This document shows, one piece after another, positions 9,789 through 29,853 of a DNA stretch of 33,450 bases. The notes beneath the pieces are model-generated. The model saw only the letters and a list, made by a program, of their open reading frames with translations. It had not been told where the DNA came from and did not search any database. A program made the translations under genes and the position numbers. Numbering within the stretch: the first letter of the stretch is position 1; the number at the start of each line of letters is the position of its first letter. The stretch comes from a virus: the IMG/VR virus record IMGVR_UViG_3300046747_000461. The stretch is one strand, 5' to 3'.

Positions 9789-10034
9789 TTAGAAGTGCCA
9801 ACCAAACTTTTTTAATATAAAAGGCAAGAATATTGCCGCTACTAAAATCAATCCTAATTCTGTTCCTAAGAAAATCTTTAACTCTTTTTCTAGTACGTAT
9901 AAATCGGATTGTGTTACTACACCATCAAAAGATGCATTCAACGATTTTACTGCCGTAGATGCTTGAGATTCAGTATACCCATTCTCTAAATATTCTTTAT
10001 AAACCTTTAATGTATCTATGTGTGCTTGTGCCAT
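9789..10034 (-). CDS. Tail-anchored small membrane protein, DUF1640-like family paralog A
   Basis: 81 aa. N-terminus IDTLKVYKEYLENGYTESQA. C-terminal TM helix LGLILVAAIFLPFIL. RBS GGAGGAG. Confidence 0.75.
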   Translation of the reverse strand: MAQAHIDTLKVYKEYLENGYTESQASTAVKSLNASFDGVVTQSDLYVLEKELKIFLGTELGLILVAAIFLPFILKKFGWHF

Positions 10035-10046
10035 ATCTATCTCCTC

Positions 10047-10346
10047 CTACCTCTTGATAAAATTATGAAAGTCATTATCCAATTTATCAACGCGTGCCTC
10101 TAATGATGACATTTTTATTTTCACTTCTGTTACATCAATAGATAAATCCCACACTTTATATAAGGTAAAACTTCCAATCGATACAATTATAAAACCAAAT
10201 ATAGTTATTAATCTATTACTAGCAAAATCTTTCAATATCCTATTGAAGGAATTATCAAAAGATTTAACCTGAGCATGTGCTTGCTCATGACTAAATCCGC
10301 CCTCTATTAGGTTCTCATATACCTGTAGAGTGTCTAACTGCGCCAT
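10047..10346 (-). CDS. Small membrane protein, DUF1640-like family paralog B
   Basis: 99 aa. LDTLQVYENLIEGGFSHEQA. Central TM helix LITIFGFIIVSIGSFTLY followed by a coiled-coil tail. RBS AGGAG. Confidence 0.75.
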   Translation of the reverse strand: MAQLDTLQVYENLIEGGFSHEQAHAQVKSFDNSFNRILKDFASNRLITIFGFIIVSIGSFTLYKVWDLSIDVTEVKIKMSSLEARVDKLDNDFHNFIKR

Positions 10347-10358
10347 ACCTATTTACTC

Positions 10359-10583
10359 CTATTTTTTATCTATTGTATGAAATTTCTCGTGTAGTTCATT
10401 AAACTTTTCGTTTACCCATTCTCTTAATTCAAGTATGGATATTTTTAAATCAGCTTTAGTTGCTGAGTCATATATTTCAGAATTTGATGCTCTGTAAAAC
10501 AGCTTTATTTCTTCAATGGCTTGTTCTTCGCTGCGCCCTTTGCCTCGCAAAGCCATATATTTGTCTATTTCTGTCGTACTCAT
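10359..10583 (-). CDS. Soluble divergent member of the same family (paralog C)
   Basis: 74 aa from ATG 10583, preceded by AGGAGG. The ORF-track start at 10598 lies inside that RBS. IDKYMALRGKGRSEEQA aligns with the family motif. No TM helix. Confidence 0.65.
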   Translation of the reverse strand: MSTTEIDKYMALRGKGRSEEQAIEEIKLFYRASNSEIYDSATKADLKISILELREWVNEKFNELHEKFHTIDKK

Positions 10584-10607
10584 AAATCCTCCTATCATAT
10601 TAATGTC

Positions 10608-10637
10608 ACAATATCACACAAACAAGACCTATGTCAA
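10608..10637 (-). promoter_or_regulatory. Sigma70-like promoter for antisense island 1
   Basis: On the minus strand: TTGACA (10637..10632), a 16-nt spacer, then TGtGATATT (extended -10, 10615..10610). Alternative -10 TATTGT with an 18-nt spacer. Confidence 0.5.
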
Positions 10638-10711
10638 CCCCTTTAATTCGTCAAAATATGCATTTGCACCTATACTGTTCTTGATATTTAGCCTGTTGAA
10701 AAGGATTTCAC

Positions 10712-12835
10712 ATGCCATTAGATCCGCGTTATATCACTACCAATACCCTAGAGCCAGTCTTTCTAGATAAGAAAACCGCGGCCCCGTTAGCGGGGGGTAT
10801 AGTTACCTTTTTTAAAGATAACAACAGAGTATTCCCTAAATTAGTTTATGAACTAACCGGCGCTCCTCCTTACTCGGGTCCGGCTCCTAATTTTACTCCA
10901 TTGCCAAATCCAATTATTTTGAGCTCTAAGGGGACCATTCAAGATGCAGCGGGCAATAACGTGGCCCTTTATTATTTCCCTTATGACGCAAATGGAGACC
11001 AGGAACTTTATTACGTTACTGTGACTGATCAGTTTGGCGTAGAGCAATTTACGCGTGAGGCATGGCCATTTATAGCTAATCCAGCATCCTCGGTCTCTGG
11101 TCAAGCCTCCATAAACAATGAACTTACAAACCCTCAGTTTTCGCAAGTTTTGTTTGATGATACCACTGGATTGGTTCTGGCTATCCCCGGAGCTATTAAT
11201 GTAACATTCGAGATTGCGCCAGGGTGGTCAATTAATGTAGTAACCTCGGGAGCGGCAACAGTAAATATCGCTAGGAATCCTATTGCCGGAGTAACTGCAT
11301 ATCCACATAATCCGCCCTATACATTGACGGTCACTCCTGGGGCCAATATTGTTAGTTTATCGTTATTCCAACGGCTATTAGGAAACCCAGATATATGGAG
11401 CCCGGCGGTAGGCGCCACTAATGGATGGATAGCGGGAACTATTTTATTGGCGCCCAATAGCAACCTAACAATGTCTTACAGAACTTCTGCTGGGGTTCCA
11501 ATTTCTCAAGATATTTTGGTAGCCAATAATCTAACAGCTAGTTATGCAGAGTTTTCTAATACTATACAATTGGCGCCTGCGGCTAATCCAAACCTTCCTC
11601 CCAGCGGATACGTGGATATAGTATTAACACTTCCGACAAATATTCCAACCACATTTAGCAATATTCAGGTTGTTGGTCTTGAAAGAAATATTTCAAATAT
11701 CGTTTACGATGAAACAACTATTAATCGCCAAATGGATCAGATGTTCAATTATTATTTTCCATTTCTTAAACAAAAACCAATACCTTCGTATCTCATTGGT
11801 TGGGATTTCAATTTAAATCCAGCTCAGGCCTTAGGTGAAACTGTGGCCGCCAGTGCCGCAGGCGCTAACACCTCGCGTTATGTTTGGGATCAAACAATTG
11901 TTTTCCAAAGCGCAAATCTTGGCCCAGCAATTTCTCGTGCACCTAGTGGCTCCATAAGAATAACTGCTACTAATACTACGCAATTTGCATTAATTCAATA
12001 TCTTGGACAAAATGATGCTAGAAAAATATTAGCAGAACGATTTGCTATGAATATAGCCGCTAAAACAAGTGTATTAGCCGGAGTTTTATCAACAGTCGAA
12101 GTATATTATACGACCGGTGCAGTTCTTCCCAGTTGTGGTGCAAATAACAGTATAGTAGCTACCCTGGATGCTACCGGTAAGCCTGCCACATTTAATTTAG
12201 CAAGCGGTCAGCCATGGAGCATAGTACCCAGAAGCGGTTTTGGGGACGCAAGGTTTACTGTCCTTCCTGCCGCAGCTCAACACCATAATGATTATAATCT
12301 TAATGCTTGGAATGCCACTCAACTCCCTGACATATCTAACGCAACATATTTAGCTGTGATTGTTGGATTTGCTCAATTACCTGCCGGAGAAACAATCGAT
12401 ATTGATTCTATTTCTCTCATGCAAGGTGATATAGCAACAAGACCGGCTCCCACAAATGGGGGAGAAACATTAAGAAGATGTCAAAGATTTTACGAAAAAT
12501 CATTTAACCAAGGAATTGTTCCGGCATCCAACGCTGGATTGAACAGCGGTGCTTATAATTTCCCCTCTACTATTGCGGGCGTTGTATTTACCATTAGTGG
12601 ATTTATACCTTTCAAGGTAACAAAGTTTGATGCAACTCCATCAATTGTAACATTTACACCCGTGGGAGCAGGGTTTCAAATGTATAACGTCACCATTGCG
12701 CTTGCAATGACAAATACACTATTCGACAGAGTAGGGGACAACGGATTTACTGTTCACTACAACGGGAGCGCAGGTACTAATTTCGGAAACATCATGGCTA
12801 TTAATTGGACAGCGGATGATCGCTTAGGAAGATAA
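10712..12835 (+). CDS. Tail fibre / receptor-binding protein 1
   Basis: 707 aa, Asn/Thr/Ala/Gly-rich and beta-rich. The C-terminal ~140 aa (ETLRRCQRFYEKSFNQG...PSIVTFTP...YNVT) is homologous by eye to the C-terminus of the 13689..15065 product. Internal repeated units are visible. Confidence 0.7.
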   Translation: MPLDPRYITTNTLEPVFLDKKTAAPLAGGIVTFFKDNNRVFPKLVYELTGAPPYSGPAPNFTPLPNPIILSSKGTIQDAAGNNVALYYFPYDANGDQELYYVTVTDQFGVEQFTREAWPFIANPASSVSGQASINNELTNPQFSQVLFDDTTGLVLAIPGAINVTFEIAPGWSINVVTSGAATVNIARNPIAGVTAYPHNPPYTLTVTPGANIVSLSLFQRLLGNPDIWSPAVGATNGWIAGTILLAPNSNLTMSYRTSAGVPISQDILVANNLTASYAEFSNTIQLAPAANPNLPPSGYVDIVLTLPTNIPTTFSNIQVVGLERNISNIVYDETTINRQMDQMFNYYFPFLKQKPIPSYLIGWDFNLNPAQALGETVAASAAGANTSRYVWDQTIVFQSANLGPAISRAPSGSIRITATNTTQFALIQYLGQNDARKILAERFAMNIAAKTSVLAGVLSTVEVYYTTGAVLPSCGANNSIVATLDATGKPATFNLASGQPWSIVPRSGFGDARFTVLPAAAQHHNDYNLNAWNATQLPDISNATYLAVIVGFAQLPAGETIDIDSISLMQGDIATRPAPTNGGETLRRCQRFYEKSFNQGIVPASNAGLNSGAYNFPSTIAGVVFTISGFIPFKVTKFDATPSIVTFTPVGAGFQMYNVTIALAMTNTLFDRVGDNGFTVHYNGSAGTNFGNIMAINWTADDRLGR

Positions 12836-19712: not shown

Positions 19713-19749
19713 AGTTTATATGCTATATATAGTTTATATCCTATATTTA

Positions 19750-19774
19750 GGGGCCAAAAGAGGCCCCTTTTTTT
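19750..19774 (+). terminator. Strong intrinsic terminator (hairpin plus T7 on the + strand; hairpin shared with the convergent minus-strand gene)
   Basis: GGGGCC-AAAAGA-GGCCCC followed by TTTTTTT. Located 6 nt beyond the stop of the minus-strand OMP gene. Confidence 0.7.
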
Positions 19775-19780
19775 ATGACG

Positions 19781-21983: not shown

Positions 21984-22825
21984 TAAAATATCTCCTTTCT
22001 AACTGCCCAGGACGGAATTGTTGCTAATTGGAACTTCTCGTCATAACCTGGCCAGTGATTTGCTTTTAAACATTCTGAATAAGTGGCCGCGCCATCCTGA
22101 TATTCTTTTCTGCCCTGGTCTAAGGATGCTTGGTCCAAAGTAAAGCAAGCGGTCAAGTAGGGGGCTTTCTTCTCAACGACAAAGAAGGCAAAGAATCGCT
22201 GATGGTTATCACCTGGCTCATTGAATTGCCTTAAAGCATCAATCTGGAGAGCTGCTTGTCTGTGATAGCCATAGGCGTACATGGTTCTCTGGAACCCTGG
22301 AATGGAGTCCGTAGTCTTTACATCGATGATTAATTTGTCGTTGTAAATATCAGGGCGAGCTCTCAACCGAGTGTTGTAGATCCCAGCATCCCAATAAATA
22401 GAACGCTCAGCCTTTCCATCCTTGATGTGCTGCCATACTTGGTGAGTTCTGGCAGCTTCTGCCATTTCTTTGATGGTTTGCCATTCGCTGGCCCTAATAA
22501 CATATCGTCCGCCTGCGGCTTTATCTGCCTCGGCATATTTCTGTTTTCCAATAGTTGTTGTTAGGTTGACTTCTTCCGTCATAGGAAAGAAGTTCTGGTC
22601 AAACTTTTCAGGCTCTAATAGCAACATATGAAAAGCGCTACCAAGCTTAAACTTATCATTTTTCTTTCTGGCATCTCCGAGCTTAGCAATTGGATTAGCT
22701 ACGTTGTATTCGTGCCAATAACGTTTTGGACAATCTAAAATCAGGTTTATTCCGCTGCTACTGATACCTTCTTCATCATGATAGGTTTCGATATCAACGT
22801 TTTCATATATGCCTGTTGGTCTCAT
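21983..22825 (-). CDS. PD-(D/E)XK exonuclease (RecE/DUF3799-like), partner of the SSAP
   Basis: 280 aa from ATG 22825, with GAGGA 7 nt upstream. GSAFHMLLLEPEKF and RPDIYNDKLIIDVKTT (D...D-x-K). Confidence 0.7.
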   Translation of the reverse strand: MRPTGIYENVDIETYHDEEGISSSGINLILDCPKRYWHEYNVANPIAKLGDARKKNDKFKLGSAFHMLLLEPEKFDQNFFPMTEEVNLTTTIGKQKYAEADKAAGGRYVIRASEWQTIKEMAEAARTHQVWQHIKDGKAERSIYWDAGIYNTRLRARPDIYNDKLIIDVKTTDSIPGFQRTMYAYGYHRQAALQIDALRQFNEPGDNHQRFFAFFVVEKKAPYLTACFTLDQASLDQGRKEYQDGAATYSECLKANHWPGYDEKFQLATIPSWAVRKEIF

Positions 22826-22898
22826 GTTGCATCCTCTTCTTAAATGTGATAACATGCGCACAGTATGTACCGATTATGTCACGATGTCAAGGGGTCTT

Positions 22899-23075
22899 AT
22901 GAGAAAATTTAATGAACCAGTCGTCAAGTTAGACGAGGATATACACATCAAGTGTAGTGAATGGTTGAAAAGAAGCGTAAGAAGGTTAGCAAATAAAAAG
23001 GGGTTAACCGAAACCGCTCTAGTTAGAATGGTTCTGACAGAACTCGTGGAGAAAGAATCGAAAAAAGAAGACTAG
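22899..23075 (+). CDS. Ribbon-helix-helix (CopG/Arc-like) regulator candidate
   Basis: 58 aa from ATG 22899, preceded by AAGGGG. VKLDEDIHIKCSEWLKRSVRRLANKKGLTETALVRMVLTELV fits the strand-helix-helix pattern. Alternative start at 22884. Confidence 0.5.
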   Translation: MRKFNEPVVKLDEDIHIKCSEWLKRSVRRLANKKGLTETALVRMVLTELVEKESKKED

Positions 23076-24012: not shown

Positions 24013-24312
24013 ATGGAAAATGACGCACTAAAAACAGATAACCGCAAGGACGTTGAACATAAAAAATTTCCATGCGCTTTTTTTCAAGATAGTAATCTTT
24101 CTCCAGATGCTATCGCGCTTGGATCCTATATTCATAGTTTTAATGATGACTTTCACATTAACTCCCTCACTATAGCAAGACGCTTCCAATGGAGCGCACA
24201 AGATTGGAACATGGCATGTATACCTCTTATTGATGAGGGTTATATGAAGTTGTTTTGGGATAACGAAAAGAAAGAGTCATATTATAATTTTTCCATAACA
24301 AAAGATTTTTAA
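24013..24312 (+). CDS. Winged-helix-like DNA-binding protein (hypothetical)
   Basis: 99 aa, RBS AAGGA. LSPDAIALGSYIHSF...LTIARRFQWSAQDWNMACIPLIDEGYM resembles replisome-organiser/DnaD-type N-terminal wHTH domains. Confidence 0.45.
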   Translation: MENDALKTDNRKDVEHKKFPCAFFQDSNLSPDAIALGSYIHSFNDDFHINSLTIARRFQWSAQDWNMACIPLIDEGYMKLFWDNEKKESYYNFSITKDF

Positions 24313-24447
24313 TAATATAAAAATCAACCAGTAGTATATAAAAAATAATTGCACCACTACATGTTGTGGTTTCTTTTGTTTGCTGTACAAATTTTAACCA
24401 CTTTCAGACCAACAACTAAGTGGACGTTCACCTTTTTTTATTTTATA

Positions 24448-24480
24448 AATAAAAACCCCGCTCGTTTTAAGGGAGCGGGG
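24448..24480 (-). terminator. Intrinsic terminator oriented for the minus strand
   Basis: Minus strand: CCCCGCTC-CCTTAAAAC-GAGCGGGG followed by TTTTTATTTAT. The + strand tail (TAGTGTTTGG) is poor. Confidence 0.7.
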
Positions 24481-24560
24481 TAGTGTTTGGTCTTTACAGA
24501 CCGACAATTTTAACAAACAACTGTTACGACACAGTTATGACTCATAATGACTACTAAGAC
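24448..24560 (-). ncRNA. Predicted ~110-nt small RNA (candidate antisense regulator of the downstream initiator leader)
   Basis: Bounded by a minus-strand promoter (TTGACA-17 nt-CATAAT) and a minus-strand intrinsic terminator. Internal hairpins AACTGT/ACAGTT and GGTC/GACC. Only an 11-codon ORF without an RBS. Confidence 0.5.
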
Positions 24561-24566
24561 GCCGCC

Positions 24567-24595
24567 ATTATGAGTCTTCTAGGGATAACTGTCAA
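24567..24595 (-). promoter_or_regulatory. Near-consensus sigma70 promoter on the minus strand
   Basis: Minus strand: TTGACA (24595..24590), 17-nt spacer GTTATCCCTAGAAGACT, CATAAT (24572..24567). Confidence 0.6.
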
Positions 24596-24622
24596 GTAGC
24601 AGCAATCTTTAGGAGGCGAGAA

Positions 24623-25489
24623 ATGTCAGCTCAGTTGAAACCACGAGAAATCAGCACAGAAGAATTATTCACACAATTAGAAAAAAACAATTACAGAATA
24701 AATCCGGCATTCGTTGATATAACCGGTAGCCGATCATTTGGTTATTTACTCACCCAACTAGTTTTCCTTGATAGGCATTGGGGTAATGAAACATTCTACG
24801 TAAAAGATTCTGACTTAATGGAGAGGCATCGGTTTACTGAATGGGAGCTTTGCAATGGAAGAAGGGTGCTAATAAAACTCGGGGTCATTTCTACCCAAAA
24901 AAGAAGCGATGGGCAGCTCTCTTACAAAATAAATAAATCTAAAATTGTTCAGCTATCTCAGGAATCAGGCTGGGGATATCTTGTTGAACAAAGTGATATT
25001 TCTGGGGGTCCTGCCGAGGATTCCTCGGGAGGCCTGCCGAGGAATCCTCGACAGCTATATAAGGAAACAAACAATAAAATAAAAACAATAAAACTAAACA
25101 ATAATATTAGGGAAAAAATTTCTGTGGATAACTCAATTAAGCAAGTTGGTGAACTGTTTGATTTTGAAAAAGAGCAGGAGAAAAGGGCAATCAGCTACGA
25201 GCAAAATTTTGTTCTTTGCAAATTGCTATCCGACAAGGTTGAGAAGGATGTGGCCACAAGAATCGTTAGAGAATTTTCCATAGGAGAGATAAACGCAATC
25301 ATAGAAGGGCTGCAAAGAGAAATTGTAAGGGGAACATTGCGTAAAAATAATGCAGCATATCTGGTTGGTTCATTCAACATGCTCCGAAAAGCAAAATTAG
25401 CTGCCAAGGAAGCCATTAATCTCATTGGAAACAACCAAACCAGAGGCAGCAATGTAAAACCTCCAGAATCGAAACCATTTGCGTTTTAG
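24623..25489 (+). CDS. Putative replication initiator / replisome organiser (wHTH N-terminal domain)
   Basis: 288 aa, RBS AGGAGG. The N-terminal FGYLLTQLVFLDRHW...FTEWELCNGRRVLIKLGVIS is wHTH-like and paralogous in pattern to the 24013..24312 product. Preceded by a structured repeat-rich gap. Confidence 0.45.
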   Translation: MSAQLKPREISTEELFTQLEKNNYRINPAFVDITGSRSFGYLLTQLVFLDRHWGNETFYVKDSDLMERHRFTEWELCNGRRVLIKLGVISTQKRSDGQLSYKINKSKIVQLSQESGWGYLVEQSDISGGPAEDSSGGLPRNPRQLYKETNNKIKTIKLNNNIREKISVDNSIKQVGELFDFEKEQEKRAISYEQNFVLCKLLSDKVEKDVATRIVREFSIGEINAIIEGLQREIVRGTLRKNNAAYLVGSFNMLRKAKLAAKEAINLIGNNQTRGSNVKPPESKPFAF

Positions 25490-26557: not shown

Positions 26558-26977
26558 ATGAACTTAACACCACAACACGTTGCCATGGCTAAAGCAAAAA
26601 ATAAAATATATCGCCTGTATGACGGAGATTGTCTTCATCTGGAAATCACACCAGCTTCTGGGAAATTATGGAGATATAAATATAAATTTAATGGTAAGGA
26701 CCAAAAATTATCTCTCGGTTGTTATCCAGAAATAGGATTATATGAAGCCAGAGAGCGTCGAGACCGTTTGAAGAAATTAGTTAAGAGTGGTATAAATCCA
26801 AGCATCGAGAGAAAAAAAGATAAACTAAATATAAAAAAATCAACCGAAAAGGATACGTTACTTATAACCATTTTAAAAGAATTAAAAAAAATATATCCAA
26901 TAGTTCAAGATGTTGATAAAAGGTTATTTAACATAGAAAAAATAATTTTAGATATAAAGATGGGATCAAATGAATAA
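26558..26977 (+). pseudogene. Truncated P4-type tyrosine integrase: arm-type DNA-binding domain only
   Basis: 139-aa ORF. The N-terminal ~85 aa (KIYRLYDGDCLHLEITPASGKLWRYKYKFNGKDQKLSLGCYPEIGLYEARERRDRLKKLVKSGINP) matches the DUF4102/arm-binding domain pattern of P4-like integrases. No catalytic domain, an AT-rich low-complexity tail and no SD. Confidence 0.7.
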
Positions 26978-27898: not shown

Positions 27899-28304
27899 GA
27901 ATCCAGTAGGAAGGCCCACCAGCTATTCTATTGAGCTTGGACAAAGAATCTGCCATGAAATTTCGACTACCGCAGATGCTCTATCTATTATTTGTGCGAG
28001 ACATGCTGACTTTCCAGTGCGCTCAACAGTTTATGAATGGAAAAAGAATTTTCCAGAATTCTCAGACATGTACGATAATGCTAAACGGCACCAGTCAGAT
28101 ATTTTAGCCGAAGAAATATTAGAAATTTGCGACACACCAATGGAAACTGCAGAGCAAATTCAACAAGCACGATTGCGTATTGATACGCGCAAATGGATAG
28201 CTTGTAAACTACTTCCAAGGACATATGGAGACAAAGCACAACATGATGTTAATGTTATAAGTCATGAACAGGCATTGCAATTTCTAGCAGATAATGACAC
28301 CTAA
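27870..28304 (+). CDS. terS: Terminase small subunit
   Basis: 144 aa. GRPTSYSIELGQRICHEIS...STVYEWKKNFPEFSDMYDNAKRHQSDILAEEILEICD...RLRIDTRKWIACKLLPRTYGDK matches the common HTH-type TerS family pattern. Confidence 0.8.
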   Translation: MKKEKESQSKNPVGRPTSYSIELGQRICHEISTTADALSIICARHADFPVRSTVYEWKKNFPEFSDMYDNAKRHQSDILAEEILEICDTPMETAEQIQQARLRIDTRKWIACKLLPRTYGDKAQHDVNVISHEQALQFLADNDT

Positions 28305-29853
28305 AGAAATAGCAGCTAGAAAAAAATTAAAATCTGATTTTGAATATTACGCTTCCAAGTGTCTAAAGATAAGAACAAAGACAGGCGAAGTGAAACCATT
28401 TGTTTTAAACAAAGCTCAACGTTTTATTCATGAAAAATTAGAAGAACAAAAAGCATTAAACGGAAAGGTAAGAGCGCTGATTTTGAAAGGGCGTCAGCAA
28501 GGATGCTCATCTTACGTGGGTGGAAGGTTTTATCACCAAACCACACACAACAGAGGGACCCAATGCTTCATCCTAACCCATGCCCTAGATGCCACCAACA
28601 ACCTATTTAAGATGGCGCAGCGCTTTTATACCAATACACCAAAACTGGTACAGCCAGAAGTCTCCTCCAACAACTCTAAAGAACTTATCTTTGGAGGCTT
28701 AGACTCAGGCTACAAGATAGGAACCGCAGAAACCAAATCCGTGGGGCGCTCAAGTACAATACAACTGTTCCATGGAAGTGAACTAGCTTTCTGGTCTAAT
28801 GCCTCAGAGCACGCCAAAGGTATCCTCCAAGCCGTCCCCGATGTCAAAGGAACAGAAATTATCCTAGAATCCACCGCCAATGGAGTAGGAAACTATTTCC
28901 ACCAAATGTGGCAAAAGGCAGAATCCAATCAATCTGACTTCATGGCTGTATTCGTCCCCTGGTTCTGGCAAGAAGAATATACCCGAACCATCCCAGAAGG
29001 GTTCCAGTTGTCACACGTGGAACATCATTTAAAAGAAATCTACGGCCTAACAGACGGCCAATTGGCCTGGCGCCGATACAAGATAGTGGACCTCTCTGTA
29101 AACGGCCAGGATGGTGAAAAATCCTTCATGCAGGAATACCCCTGCAATGCCAATGAGGCATTTCAGCTAACTGGCGAAAACACATTCATAGACTCTGCTA
29201 TAGTTATGAGAGCGAGAAAAGGAGTCGCGGAACGTTATGGACCTCTACTTATCGGTGTTGATCCTGCTCGTTTTGGGGACGATAGGACCTCTATTATATT
29301 TAGGCAAGGACGAGTAGCTTTCGGGCTACAAAGCTTTACTAAAAAGGACACTATGGAAGTGACAGGGATTGTGCACTCTCTAATTGAGCAGCATCGGCCA
29401 GAAAAGGTATTCGTGGATATCGGAGGCTTAGGTGCTGGTGTGGTCGATAGGCTAAATGAACTTGGCCATCGAGACATTGTCGTTGCGGTAAATGCAGGCG
29501 CTAAACCCCTAGATGAAAAGCGTTATAGCAACAAGCGGGCCGAGATGTGGGACCTTTGCGCTAAATGGCTACAAGATATCCCCATTCAAATCCCAGATAC
29601 AGATACCCTGCATGCCGACCTTTGCGGCATTCGCTATAGCTTCGATTCTAATTCTAGATTAGTCATGGAAAAAAAAGAAGACATGAAGAAGCGCGGTGTG
29701 CGCTCTCCAGATGAATCGGATTCCTTGTGTTTAACATTTGCACTTCCTCCCTCTGCTTACAAAAAAGAAGAAAAAGAAACCAAGGAAGTTATTAAGGGAC
29801 TCGCACAAAGCTTTAACCAGAAAATGCTAGCAATGCAAAAATCAAGGAAATGA
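28294..29853 (+). CDS. terL: Terminase large subunit
   Basis: 519 aa. Walker-A-like LILKGRQQGCSS, a C-terminal nuclease-like region, and flanked by terS and the portal gene. Confidence 0.88.
   Translation: MTPKEIAARKKLKSDFEYYASKCLKIRTKTGEVKPFVLNKAQRFIHEKLEEQKALNGKVRALILKGRQQGCSSYVGGRFYHQTTHNRGTQCFILTHALDATNNLFKMAQRFYTNTPKLVQPEVSSNNSKELIFGGLDSGYKIGTAETKSVGRSSTIQLFHGSELAFWSNASEHAKGILQAVPDVKGTEIILESTANGVGNYFHQMWQKAESNQSDFMAVFVPWFWQEEYTRTIPEGFQLSHVEHHLKEIYGLTDGQLAWRRYKIVDLSVNGQDGEKSFMQEYPCNANEAFQLTGENTFIDSAIVMRARKGVAERYGPLLIGVDPARFGDDRTSIIFRQGRVAFGLQSFTKKDTMEVTGIVHSLIEQHRPEKVFVDIGGLGAGVVDRLNELGHRDIVVAVNAGAKPLDEKRYSNKRAEMWDLCAKWLQDIPIQIPDTDTLHADLCGIRYSFDSNSRLVMEKKEDMKKRGVRSPDESDSLCLTFALPPSAYKKEEKETKEVIKGLAQSFNQKMLAMQKSRK

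Follow-up and report, generated by a model that had tools for sequence, protein, structure and literature searches.

A predicted antisense RNA gene in the leader of a lambda-O-like replication initiator from a P22-like phage

Described control systems and the present locus

Antisense control of copy number is a textbook mechanism for plasmids. Among phages, such control is to our knowledge documented in only a few model systems, and the replication role of lambda oop and its promoter, pO, has been debated for decades. Here we examine a locus in IMG/VR virus record IMGVR_UViG_3300046747_000461, whose 33,450 nucleotides (nt) we refer to as the window. The locus, W, is the gap ahead of a gene for a 288-amino-acid (aa) lambda-O-like replication initiator. 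Our analysis suggests that the minus strand of this gap carries a gene for a noncoding RNA of about 110 nt that would be complementary to the initiator's own leader. We consider it rather probable that a P22-like phage here has, where lambda has oop, a countertranscript control module of the plasmid type, and that the module extends across a family of O-like initiators that has lacked annotation.

The described systems differ in how pairing is converted into inhibition. In plasmid R1 and the IncFII group, promoters are convergent, and the antisense RNA CopA binds the repA leader (CopT) upstream of the ribosome binding site (RBS) and blocks translation indirectly. Specifically, control in R1 runs through translational coupling to the tap leader peptide. 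In pT181, pIP501, and pAMbeta1, antisense pairing frees a downstream segment to form an inhibitory helix, which is a transcription terminator. Phages reportedly have antisense RNAs that restrain replication or an antirepressor operon, namely, P53as of P1, sar of P22, and c4 of P1 and P7, which Heinrich et al. 1995 and Citron & Schuster 1990 (the latter cited in PMC8198154) are said to have described. Finally, lambda has a short leftward RNA beside the 5' end of O, with the origin (ori) inside O and an intrinsic terminator, tO; this is the system closest to our locus by position.

By mechanism and modularity, the closest systems are RNA I of ColE2/ColE3 and REx-C (Pseudomonas pPT23A-family, RepA-PFP/RepJ plasmids). 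In these replicons, the antisense RNA gene lies within the 5' untranslated region of rep, its promoter sits in a stem-loop beside the rep RBS, and it terminates at a second stem-loop upstream (PMC5304414). The RNA acts posttranscriptionally without having to cover the RBS, the modules are exchangeable units between replicons, and in RepA-PFP replicons the origin is inside the rep coding sequence (PMC5304414). Our locus shares with them a predicted opposite-strand promoter in the rep leader near the RBS and a terminator that would give a discrete, structured noncoding RNA in the range of tens to ~200 nt. In addition, the control cassette differs between two natural alleles, W and L017, in what may be a single exchange, and the initiator gene contains iterons. 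Unlike the plasmid systems, the locus is on a phage genome, encodes a lambda-O-like winged-helix/iteron initiator rather than a ColE2 primase-type Rep, has no visible leader peptide, and shares no sequence similarity. Furthermore, two features are our proposal for this locus and are not drawn from ColE2/REx-C: the location of the RNA's -10 within a segment complementary to the Shine-Dalgarno sequence (an anti-SD), and the arrangement of SD mimic, anti-SD, and SD.

The comparison with lambda is one of layout. Here too, a leftward promoter at an O-type gene with an intragenic origin is followed by a terminator. The -35 of pO is inside O and its -10 is over the O start codon, whereas the promoter here is ~55 nt further upstream. 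In lambda, oop and cII share a 52-nt overlap, and oop lowers cII expression via RNase III; in contrast, the predicted RNA ends at ~24448, 136 nt from the upstream open reading frame (ORF, ending at 24312), and its only complementary target is the initiator's own leader. A search for oop homology found none, the RNA sequences sharing only a generic -10, with no DNA match to any phage record. In lambda, pO has been linked to replication control (PMC3985674).

A preliminary description of the window, made from the sequence alone, had likened the layout to antisense control of the R1 CopA type or to phage immunity RNAs. Antisense control as such is supported in silico, and the two analogies fare less well. 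A tap-like leader peptide was considered, and no SD-preceded ORF was found in 24456-24622 (only 6- and 9-codon frames without an SD), which makes R1 CopA the less apt analog. The P1, P22, and P1/P7 RNAs differ in gene context and targets and gave no sequence or Rfam match, and nothing at this locus points to an immunity region or an immunity RNA.

The predicted minus-strand RNA gene

The gap spans 24313-24622 (310 nt, as the preliminary description had it), between a plus-strand 99-aa ORF and the 288-aa ORF, which starts at 24623. It may be read as a self-contained gene for a noncoding RNA of ~110 nt, driven by a strong promoter of the sigma-70 type directed away from the initiator. Its elements are as follows.

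24595-24590, minus strand: -35 hexamer TTGACA, first base 28 nt from the rep ATG
24572-24567, minus strand: -10 hexamer CATAAT, within one inverted-repeat arm; the opposite strand is part of the proposed anti-SD
24560 to 24448, minus strand: predicted small RNA of ~105-113 nt; +1 placed at G24560, 7 nt past the -10, and 3' end in the U-tract
24517-24538, minus strand: internal hairpin 1, 8 bp with a 6-nt loop, from the fold of the predicted RNA
24489-24502, minus strand: internal hairpin 2, GGUCU-GUAA-AGACC, from the fold of the predicted RNA
24481-24455, minus strand: terminator hairpin, eight G/C-rich pairs and a closing A-U, 9-nt loop

The promoter, TTGACA-17-CATAAT, matches the consensus at 11/12 positions and is the sole match of at least 11/12 on either strand of the whole window. 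Because block shuffles give 1.4 such matches per window, the promoter match alone is not significant. The terminator reads (A)CCCCGCTC, a 9-nt loop, and GAGCGGGG(T), then TTTTATTTAT, with a U-tract (TTTTTATTTAT) that extends to ~24445. It is one of two strong intrinsic terminators in the window, where 0.23 would be expected; a scan with a loop limit of 8 misses this 9-nt-loop hairpin, and a second scan detects it. The U-tract is on the minus strand only, and the plus-strand tail of the same hairpin (AGTGTTTGGTC) is poor. The near-consensus promoter and the strong terminator ~110 nt downstream, oriented for the minus strand only, are thus as the preliminary description had claimed. We estimate the joint chance of finding the best promoter and a top terminator on the same strand, ~110 nt apart, and in one gap at ~1e-5 to 1e-6. 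Chance pairing is therefore very unlikely, given that the two elements share a strand, that distance, and a noncoding gap.

The predicted RNA is itself unusually stable. At 113 nt, its minimum free energy is -34.2 kcal/mol (z = -4.4), a stability reached by 0 of 200 shuffles, and its fold contains the two further hairpins that had been proposed. We also looked into a small minus-strand protein as an alternative and discarded it, since the gap has no credible minus-strand ORF: a TTG-start 40-aa frame crosses the terminator, an 11-codon AUG frame has no SD, and neither is conserved in L017. This bears out the earlier statement that no minus-strand protein gene lies here. Searches of Rfam at gathering and permissive thresholds returned only terminator-driven hits far below threshold, and none of its phage and plasmid antisense RNA families (among them sar, C4, CopA, and RNAI) reached the gathering score. 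Taken together, the elements and their rarity, which are read directly from the DNA, make a real minus-strand RNA gene highly probable; from them we infer transcription and the two RNA ends.

Two further observations concern the promoter. Its discriminator (24566-24560, minus strand), which separates the -10 from the predicted +1, consists of G and C alone (GGCGGCG) in a genome with 40% G+C. Discriminators of this type have been associated with stringent (ppGpp/DksA) control; relatives do not share the feature. Elsewhere in the window, a promoter that resembles that of the small RNA, TTGACA-17-CATACT at 22890-22862 (minus strand), heads the leftward exonuclease/recombinase operon, and the genome's other strong intrinsic terminator is at 19749-19780 (plus strand).

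Evidence from natural variation comes from one allele. Throughout the gap, thirteen metagenome contigs of this phage have one and the same sequence (one of them, L007, spans just the last 113 nt). In the variant allele, L017, a cassette of ~140 bp that comprises the RNA body, promoter, and RBS has been replaced: the span 24484-24622, which runs up to the initiator start, is ~59-65% identical to W, and the flanks are 87-100% identical. This is one swap of a control region relative to rep and ori with conserved flanks (n = 1). The L017 promoter is TTGACA-17-AATGAT with an extended -10 TG, and its -35 is 30 nt from the ATG. Its predicted RNA, 111 nt long, is more structured than that of W (z = -6.5). 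The terminator is kept with a longer U-tract (9 U), and its single stem substitution would form a G·U pair on the minus strand but leave A·C on the plus one.

Upstream of the cassette, a noncoding block of ~140 nt (24341-24483; L017 2722-2860) is 87-90% identical between the alleles. It persists between two replaced segments, the 99-aa gene and the RNA cassette, and it contains two plus-strand features.

24353-24370, plus strand: terminator-like hairpin after the upstream 99-aa gene, within the block kept in both alleles
24421-24449, plus strand: weak candidate promoter for the initiator, TGGACG-17-TATAAA (9/12), kept in L017

This weak candidate would begin the leader at the foot of the RNA terminator hairpin, e.g., at ~24456. 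Alternatively, the rep leader may arise by read-through from the upstream operon.

The initiator, its probable origin, and related loci

The case for an initiator rests on distant homologs and on the structure of the gene.

24623-25489, plus strand: 288-aa lambda-O-like replication initiator with an N-terminal winged helix, assigned from homologs' PHROG matches and a structure model
25004-25110, strand not applicable: probable origin, with two 23-bp iterons containing internal dyads (25004-25049) and an A/T-rich stretch (25068-25110)

The nearest relative of the 288-aa protein among ~15 billion proteins searched has at most 36% identity. The protein has no Pfam hit, its own PHROG match is weak (phrog_678, E = 1e-3), hhalign aligns it directly to lambda O at only marginal significance (E = 0.067), and a family profile run against Pfam and PDB sequences gave nothing useful. 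Its 44 distant homologs have an N-terminal winged-helix domain in common. Of the 20 best, 14 match phrog_9773, "replication initiation O-like" (best E = 2e-21), and 10 match phrog_270, "replication initiation protein." An AlphaFold2 (AF2) model, with a predicted local distance difference test score (pLDDT) of 79, also has winged-helix matches. Within the gene, each iteron holds the dyad CCGAGGAWTCCTCGG, and the pair lies 382-427 nt in, compared with 349-433 nt into O for the lambda ori iterons. Relatives have two or three iterons at the equivalent site, with three in L022, L023, L026, and L027. The initiator function proposed in the preliminary description is supported by these matches together with the intragenic iterons. 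A winged helix homologous to O-like proteins and iterons in the linker-coding part of its own gene are the traits of a lambda-O-like initiator, and a replication origin inside the gene is probable.

We then asked how often the layout recurs by comparing initiator surroundings at 11 loci, scoring a minus-strand promoter of at least 9/12 whose -35 starts 25-46 nt before the ATG (a 22-nt window). Seven of the 11 loci have such a promoter; at a background of 0.0015 per position and strand, the binomial p is ~1e-8. Five have one of at least 10/12 (p ~3e-9). Run on lambda as a positive control, the scan detects both pO (TTGAGT-17-CATAAT) and tO. Distances from the -35 start to the ATG, all on the minus strand, are as follows.

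W: 28 nt
L017: 30 nt
L022: 28 nt
L023: 38 nt
L027: 45 nt
L011: 38 nt
L014: 27 nt

Another locus, L026, has TTGACA at 26 nt with a weak -10. Minus-strand terminators lie downstream in W, L017, L022, L023, L027, L026, and L014, that is, in six of the seven promoter-bearing loci and in L026, and the predicted RNAs are ~40-216 nt long. The full layout is missing in L015 (no gap), L025, and L013 (terminator only). A tighter family alignment yielded one extra, marginal locus, L028, and no locus when run against the genome collection. The preliminary description had named conservation of the promoter and terminator in relatives as a test of the RNA gene; L017 keeps both, the promoter recurs at its position in 7/11 family loci (W and L017 included), six of these seven also have the terminator, and the proposal stands on that count.

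Some relatives have features of their own. In L027, two minus-strand promoter-plus-terminator units (1005-1140 and 1345-1470) have near-identical promoters (GTATTGACA...GTCCATGATTC) and diverged bodies. The initiator gene follows one of them, and the second, which overlaps the first part of a 96-aa ORF further upstream, looks like another antisense unit. ParA-type partition genes adjoin the initiator homologs in L022 (1201-1890) and L023 (1410-2048), which suggests that these are plasmid-like or phage-plasmid elements. Finally, L025 has a phage-borne CsrA homolog (961-1209).

The window itself is an essentially complete podophage genome of the P22-like type (~33.4 kb), with genes for a small terminase of the Sf6 type, a P22-type portal, a major head protein, a PD-(D/E)XK exonuclease, and tRNA-Asn. 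The phage has been seen solely in a series of metagenome assemblies, with source samples in the JGI 3300046xxx-3300049xxx series (SRR26076528, SRR26077540, and SRR26077926). Annotated phage and plasmid collections gave no DNA or protein match to it. The conserved upstream block gave no match in pattern scans of the metagenome and GTDB genome collections, an IMG/VR scan for the 11-bp inverted repeat described below found none, and single-protein scans found no close relatives of P0002 and P0005. Among ~40 ORFs scanned, no full integrase or CI-type repressor was recognized. A 139-aa ORF (26558-26977), missing from L017, has only the arm-type DNA-binding domain of an integrase (Arm-DNA-bind_3, phrog_3423), and an Arc/CopG-like ORF lies near the gap (22809-23075). 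In L006, a variant of this phage, the large terminase (9877-12393, corresponding to 28294-29853 of the window) has 838 aa with Hint_2/intein hits, instead of the 519-aa protein, in what looks like an intein insertion polymorphism.

A proposed switch in the leader, its rivals, and its meaning

According to the preliminary description, the -10 lies inside the 3' arm of an 11-bp inverted repeat that would fold in the plus-strand leader. Our analysis agrees: the repeat (24539-24549 and 24566-24576) is perfect, has no second copy in the window, is predicted to fold in the leader on the plus strand, and includes the -10 within its second arm. A simple hairpin is, nevertheless, a less apt description of it than a pair formed by an anti-anti-SD and an anti-SD.

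24539-24549, plus strand: inverted-repeat arm 1, GACTCATAATG, under the small RNA; proposed anti-anti-SD
24565-24587, plus strand: proposed anti-SD segment, arm 2 (24566-24576) with UCUUCUAGGGAU, outside the cover of the small RNA
24605-24625, plus strand: SD AGGAGG (24611-24616) and start codon (24623-24625), the proposed anti-SD target

The predicted RNA would be perfectly complementary to leader part 24448-24560, leaving the RBS outside its cover. Simple ribosome blocking is impossible because the RNA does not cover the SD. Sequence complementarity instead suggests a three-part translational switch, which is our preferred mechanism. In the free leader, arm 1 would pair with arm 2 and so occupy part of the anti-SD. 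The single-stranded 5' tail of the RNA, complementary to the loop of this hairpin, probably nucleates pairing and would then invade arm 1. The released anti-SD would form an extended helix with the SD and AUG, and translation of the initiator would fall. In this scheme, arm 1, under the RNA, is the anti-anti-SD; arm 2 with its flank is the anti-SD, which would carry the RNA's -10 on its other strand; and the SD/AUG is the third part. Cleavage of the RNA:leader duplex by RNase III would leave the same closed 3' fragment. Since the dosage of the RNA would track genome copy number, the outcome would be negative feedback on replication, and the RNA could also act in trans on an incoming genome with the same allele. 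The logic is that of pT181-type attenuation, with an anti-SD:SD helix rather than a terminator as the output. We rejected a plus-strand leader attenuator for the window; attenuation is unlikely there because the helix after arm 2 has no U-tract (UUCUAGGG).

Several calculations are consistent with this switch, from which we infer pairing in vivo and an effect on translation. The duplex between the anti-SD (24565-24587) and 24605-24625 has an energy of -17.9 kcal/mol, and predicted upstream anti-SD pairing is stronger for the initiator than for any other of the window's 38 genes (-17.9 versus -7.4 +/- 2.9 kcal/mol). In W, L017, L022, and L023, the segment from the RNA start to the SD is predicted to pair with the SD/AUG more strongly than dinucleotide shuffles do (z = -3.9, -4.1, -4.6, and -3.7, respectively), and also with the RNA-covered leader in W (z = -2.6), L017 (z = -3.9), and L023 (z = -2.0). 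When the RNA-covered leader is forced to be unpaired, the probability that the SD-AUG region is unpaired falls from 0.40 to 0.20, 0.42 to 0.16, 0.41 to 0.06, and 0.50 to 0.35 in the same four loci. Furthermore, cognate anti-SD:SD duplexes have predicted energies of -17.9, -14.9, -19.3, and -15.7 kcal/mol (W, L017, L022, and L023), compared with -5.5 to -12.3 kcal/mol for noncognate ones, and the cognate duplex is the best of each row and column in the four-locus cross matrix. Read from predicted energies, this preference amounts to covariation at the level of the module.

The repeat itself recurs in varied form. It overlaps the -10 in W, L017, L022, and L023 and flanks it in L011, with arm sequences and lengths that vary among loci and spacers of 4, 9, 16, and 20 nt. 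The L022 leader has repeated TCTCTCGG/TATCTCTCAG motifs, of which the repeat at the -10 is part, and the arm-2 hairpin is terminator-like, being followed by GGAGCTTTTT on the plus strand (L022 2400-2460). L022 might combine attenuation with SD masking.

An argument can be made against this interpretation on several grounds. The SD of the window is already partly paired in the free leader (probability of being unpaired, 0.40), so that the predicted switch is a matter of degree. In L022, the segment does not pair significantly with the RNA-covered leader (z = -0.03), and the predicted RNA start is inside arm 1; L026 and L027 give only a weak switch signal, and L014 gives none. Four of the 11 loci (L013, L015, L025, and L026) have no qualifying promoter, and L028 has only weak signals. 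Within the phage there is no covariation to draw on, since 13 contigs are identical and there is a single variant allele, and the strand-specific argument from that allele depends on a single G·U substitution. The phage was not found in the phage, plasmid, IMG/VR, metagenome, and GTDB collections searched. An initiator mRNA that started downstream of 24560 would leave the RNA without a target. Finally, the distance window of the binomial test was picked after the data had been seen, and W and L017 are not independent; the result on promoter position is robust to both. With these points taken into account, we lean toward antisense control of initiator expression by the ~110-nt RNA, a view that sequence complementarity favors.

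The main rival is that the promoter acts as pO may do, by transcriptional interference or replication-coupled control: convergent polymerases would throttle rightward transcription into the initiator and origin, with the RNA as a by-product. The geometry is lambda-like, with a promoter directed away from an O-like gene whose internal origin is ~400 bp off, and promoter position is the chief feature conserved in the family. In lambda, pO activity is reported to affect replication independently of the oop RNA level (PMC3985674). Yet, interference requires no strong terminator, structured RNA, or anti-SD logic, all of which recur. We consider it unlikely as the whole explanation, and it may coexist with an effect of the RNA. 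A second possibility is that the inverted repeat is a protein operator for one or both promoters, used in autoregulation by the initiator or by a phage repressor, with the RNA switch as a side effect. A perfect 11-bp repeat lies over a -10 in W, L022, and L023, the Arc/CopG-like ORF is nearby, and iteron initiators often autoregulate via inverted repeats. However, the arms are unlike the iterons of the same locus (GACTCATAATG versus CCGAGGATTCCTCGG), and likewise in L022 and L023, for which reason we rejected an operator of the Rep-iteron type. The spacings and arm lengths, which differ among loci, suit a hairpin loop better than a protein site, and an operator has no need for complementarity to the cognate SD/AUG, which is nevertheless present. 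An operator is therefore, in our judgment, quite unlikely.

It is also conceivable that the small RNA is genuine and its target lies elsewhere, whether as a trans regulator of host or phage mRNAs or as an oop-like RNase III trigger on the long early transcript that would control the 80-aa and 99-aa genes. The promoter, terminator, and structure argue for an RNA and do not specify a target, and lambda oop does act on its upstream gene, cII. Here, though, 136 nt separate the end of the RNA from the upstream ORF, the mRNA of which would be protected by the hairpin at 24353-24370; the cassette covaries with the initiator's own SD region; and L022 and L023 have no notable upstream plus-strand gene. 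Such a target is about as improbable as an operator. Least probable by far is chance juxtaposition, or that the hairpin is the plus-strand terminator of the upstream operon. A window of 33 kb is expected to contain a promoter of 11/12 (1.4), and the hairpin folds on the plus strand too. Against this reading stand the joint rarity of promoter and terminator, a U-tract confined to the minus strand, an L017 stem change that can still pair on that strand (G·U) but not on the other (A·C), and the recurrence of the layout in unrelated sequences.

Our findings point to an oop-positioned RNA aimed at the initiator's own leader, in a layout that recurs in phages and in ParA-bearing, plasmid-like elements. 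They also flag two elements of this genome that gene callers miss, a putative gene for a regulatory RNA and a probable origin. The rule by which the -10 lies in the anti-SD and the partner arm lies under the RNA could help to locate such modules in other replicons. A more speculative possibility, which we hold to be rather doubtful, is that the ~140-bp cassette determines specificity as a portable module that evolves fast, and so sorts co-circulating phages and phage-plasmids with this initiator family into plasmid-like "replication incompatibility groups." If so, a resident RNA would silence the initiator of an incoming genome with the same allele and spare one with a different allele, such that replication control and superinfection exclusion would be one device, built on a design in which one stretch of DNA would provide both the -10 of the RNA promoter and the anti-SD of the initiator gene. 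W and L017, as two natural alleles, are well suited to a comparison of specificity. More generally, the locus provides a clean, testable case for plasmid-type negative feedback on phage replication.

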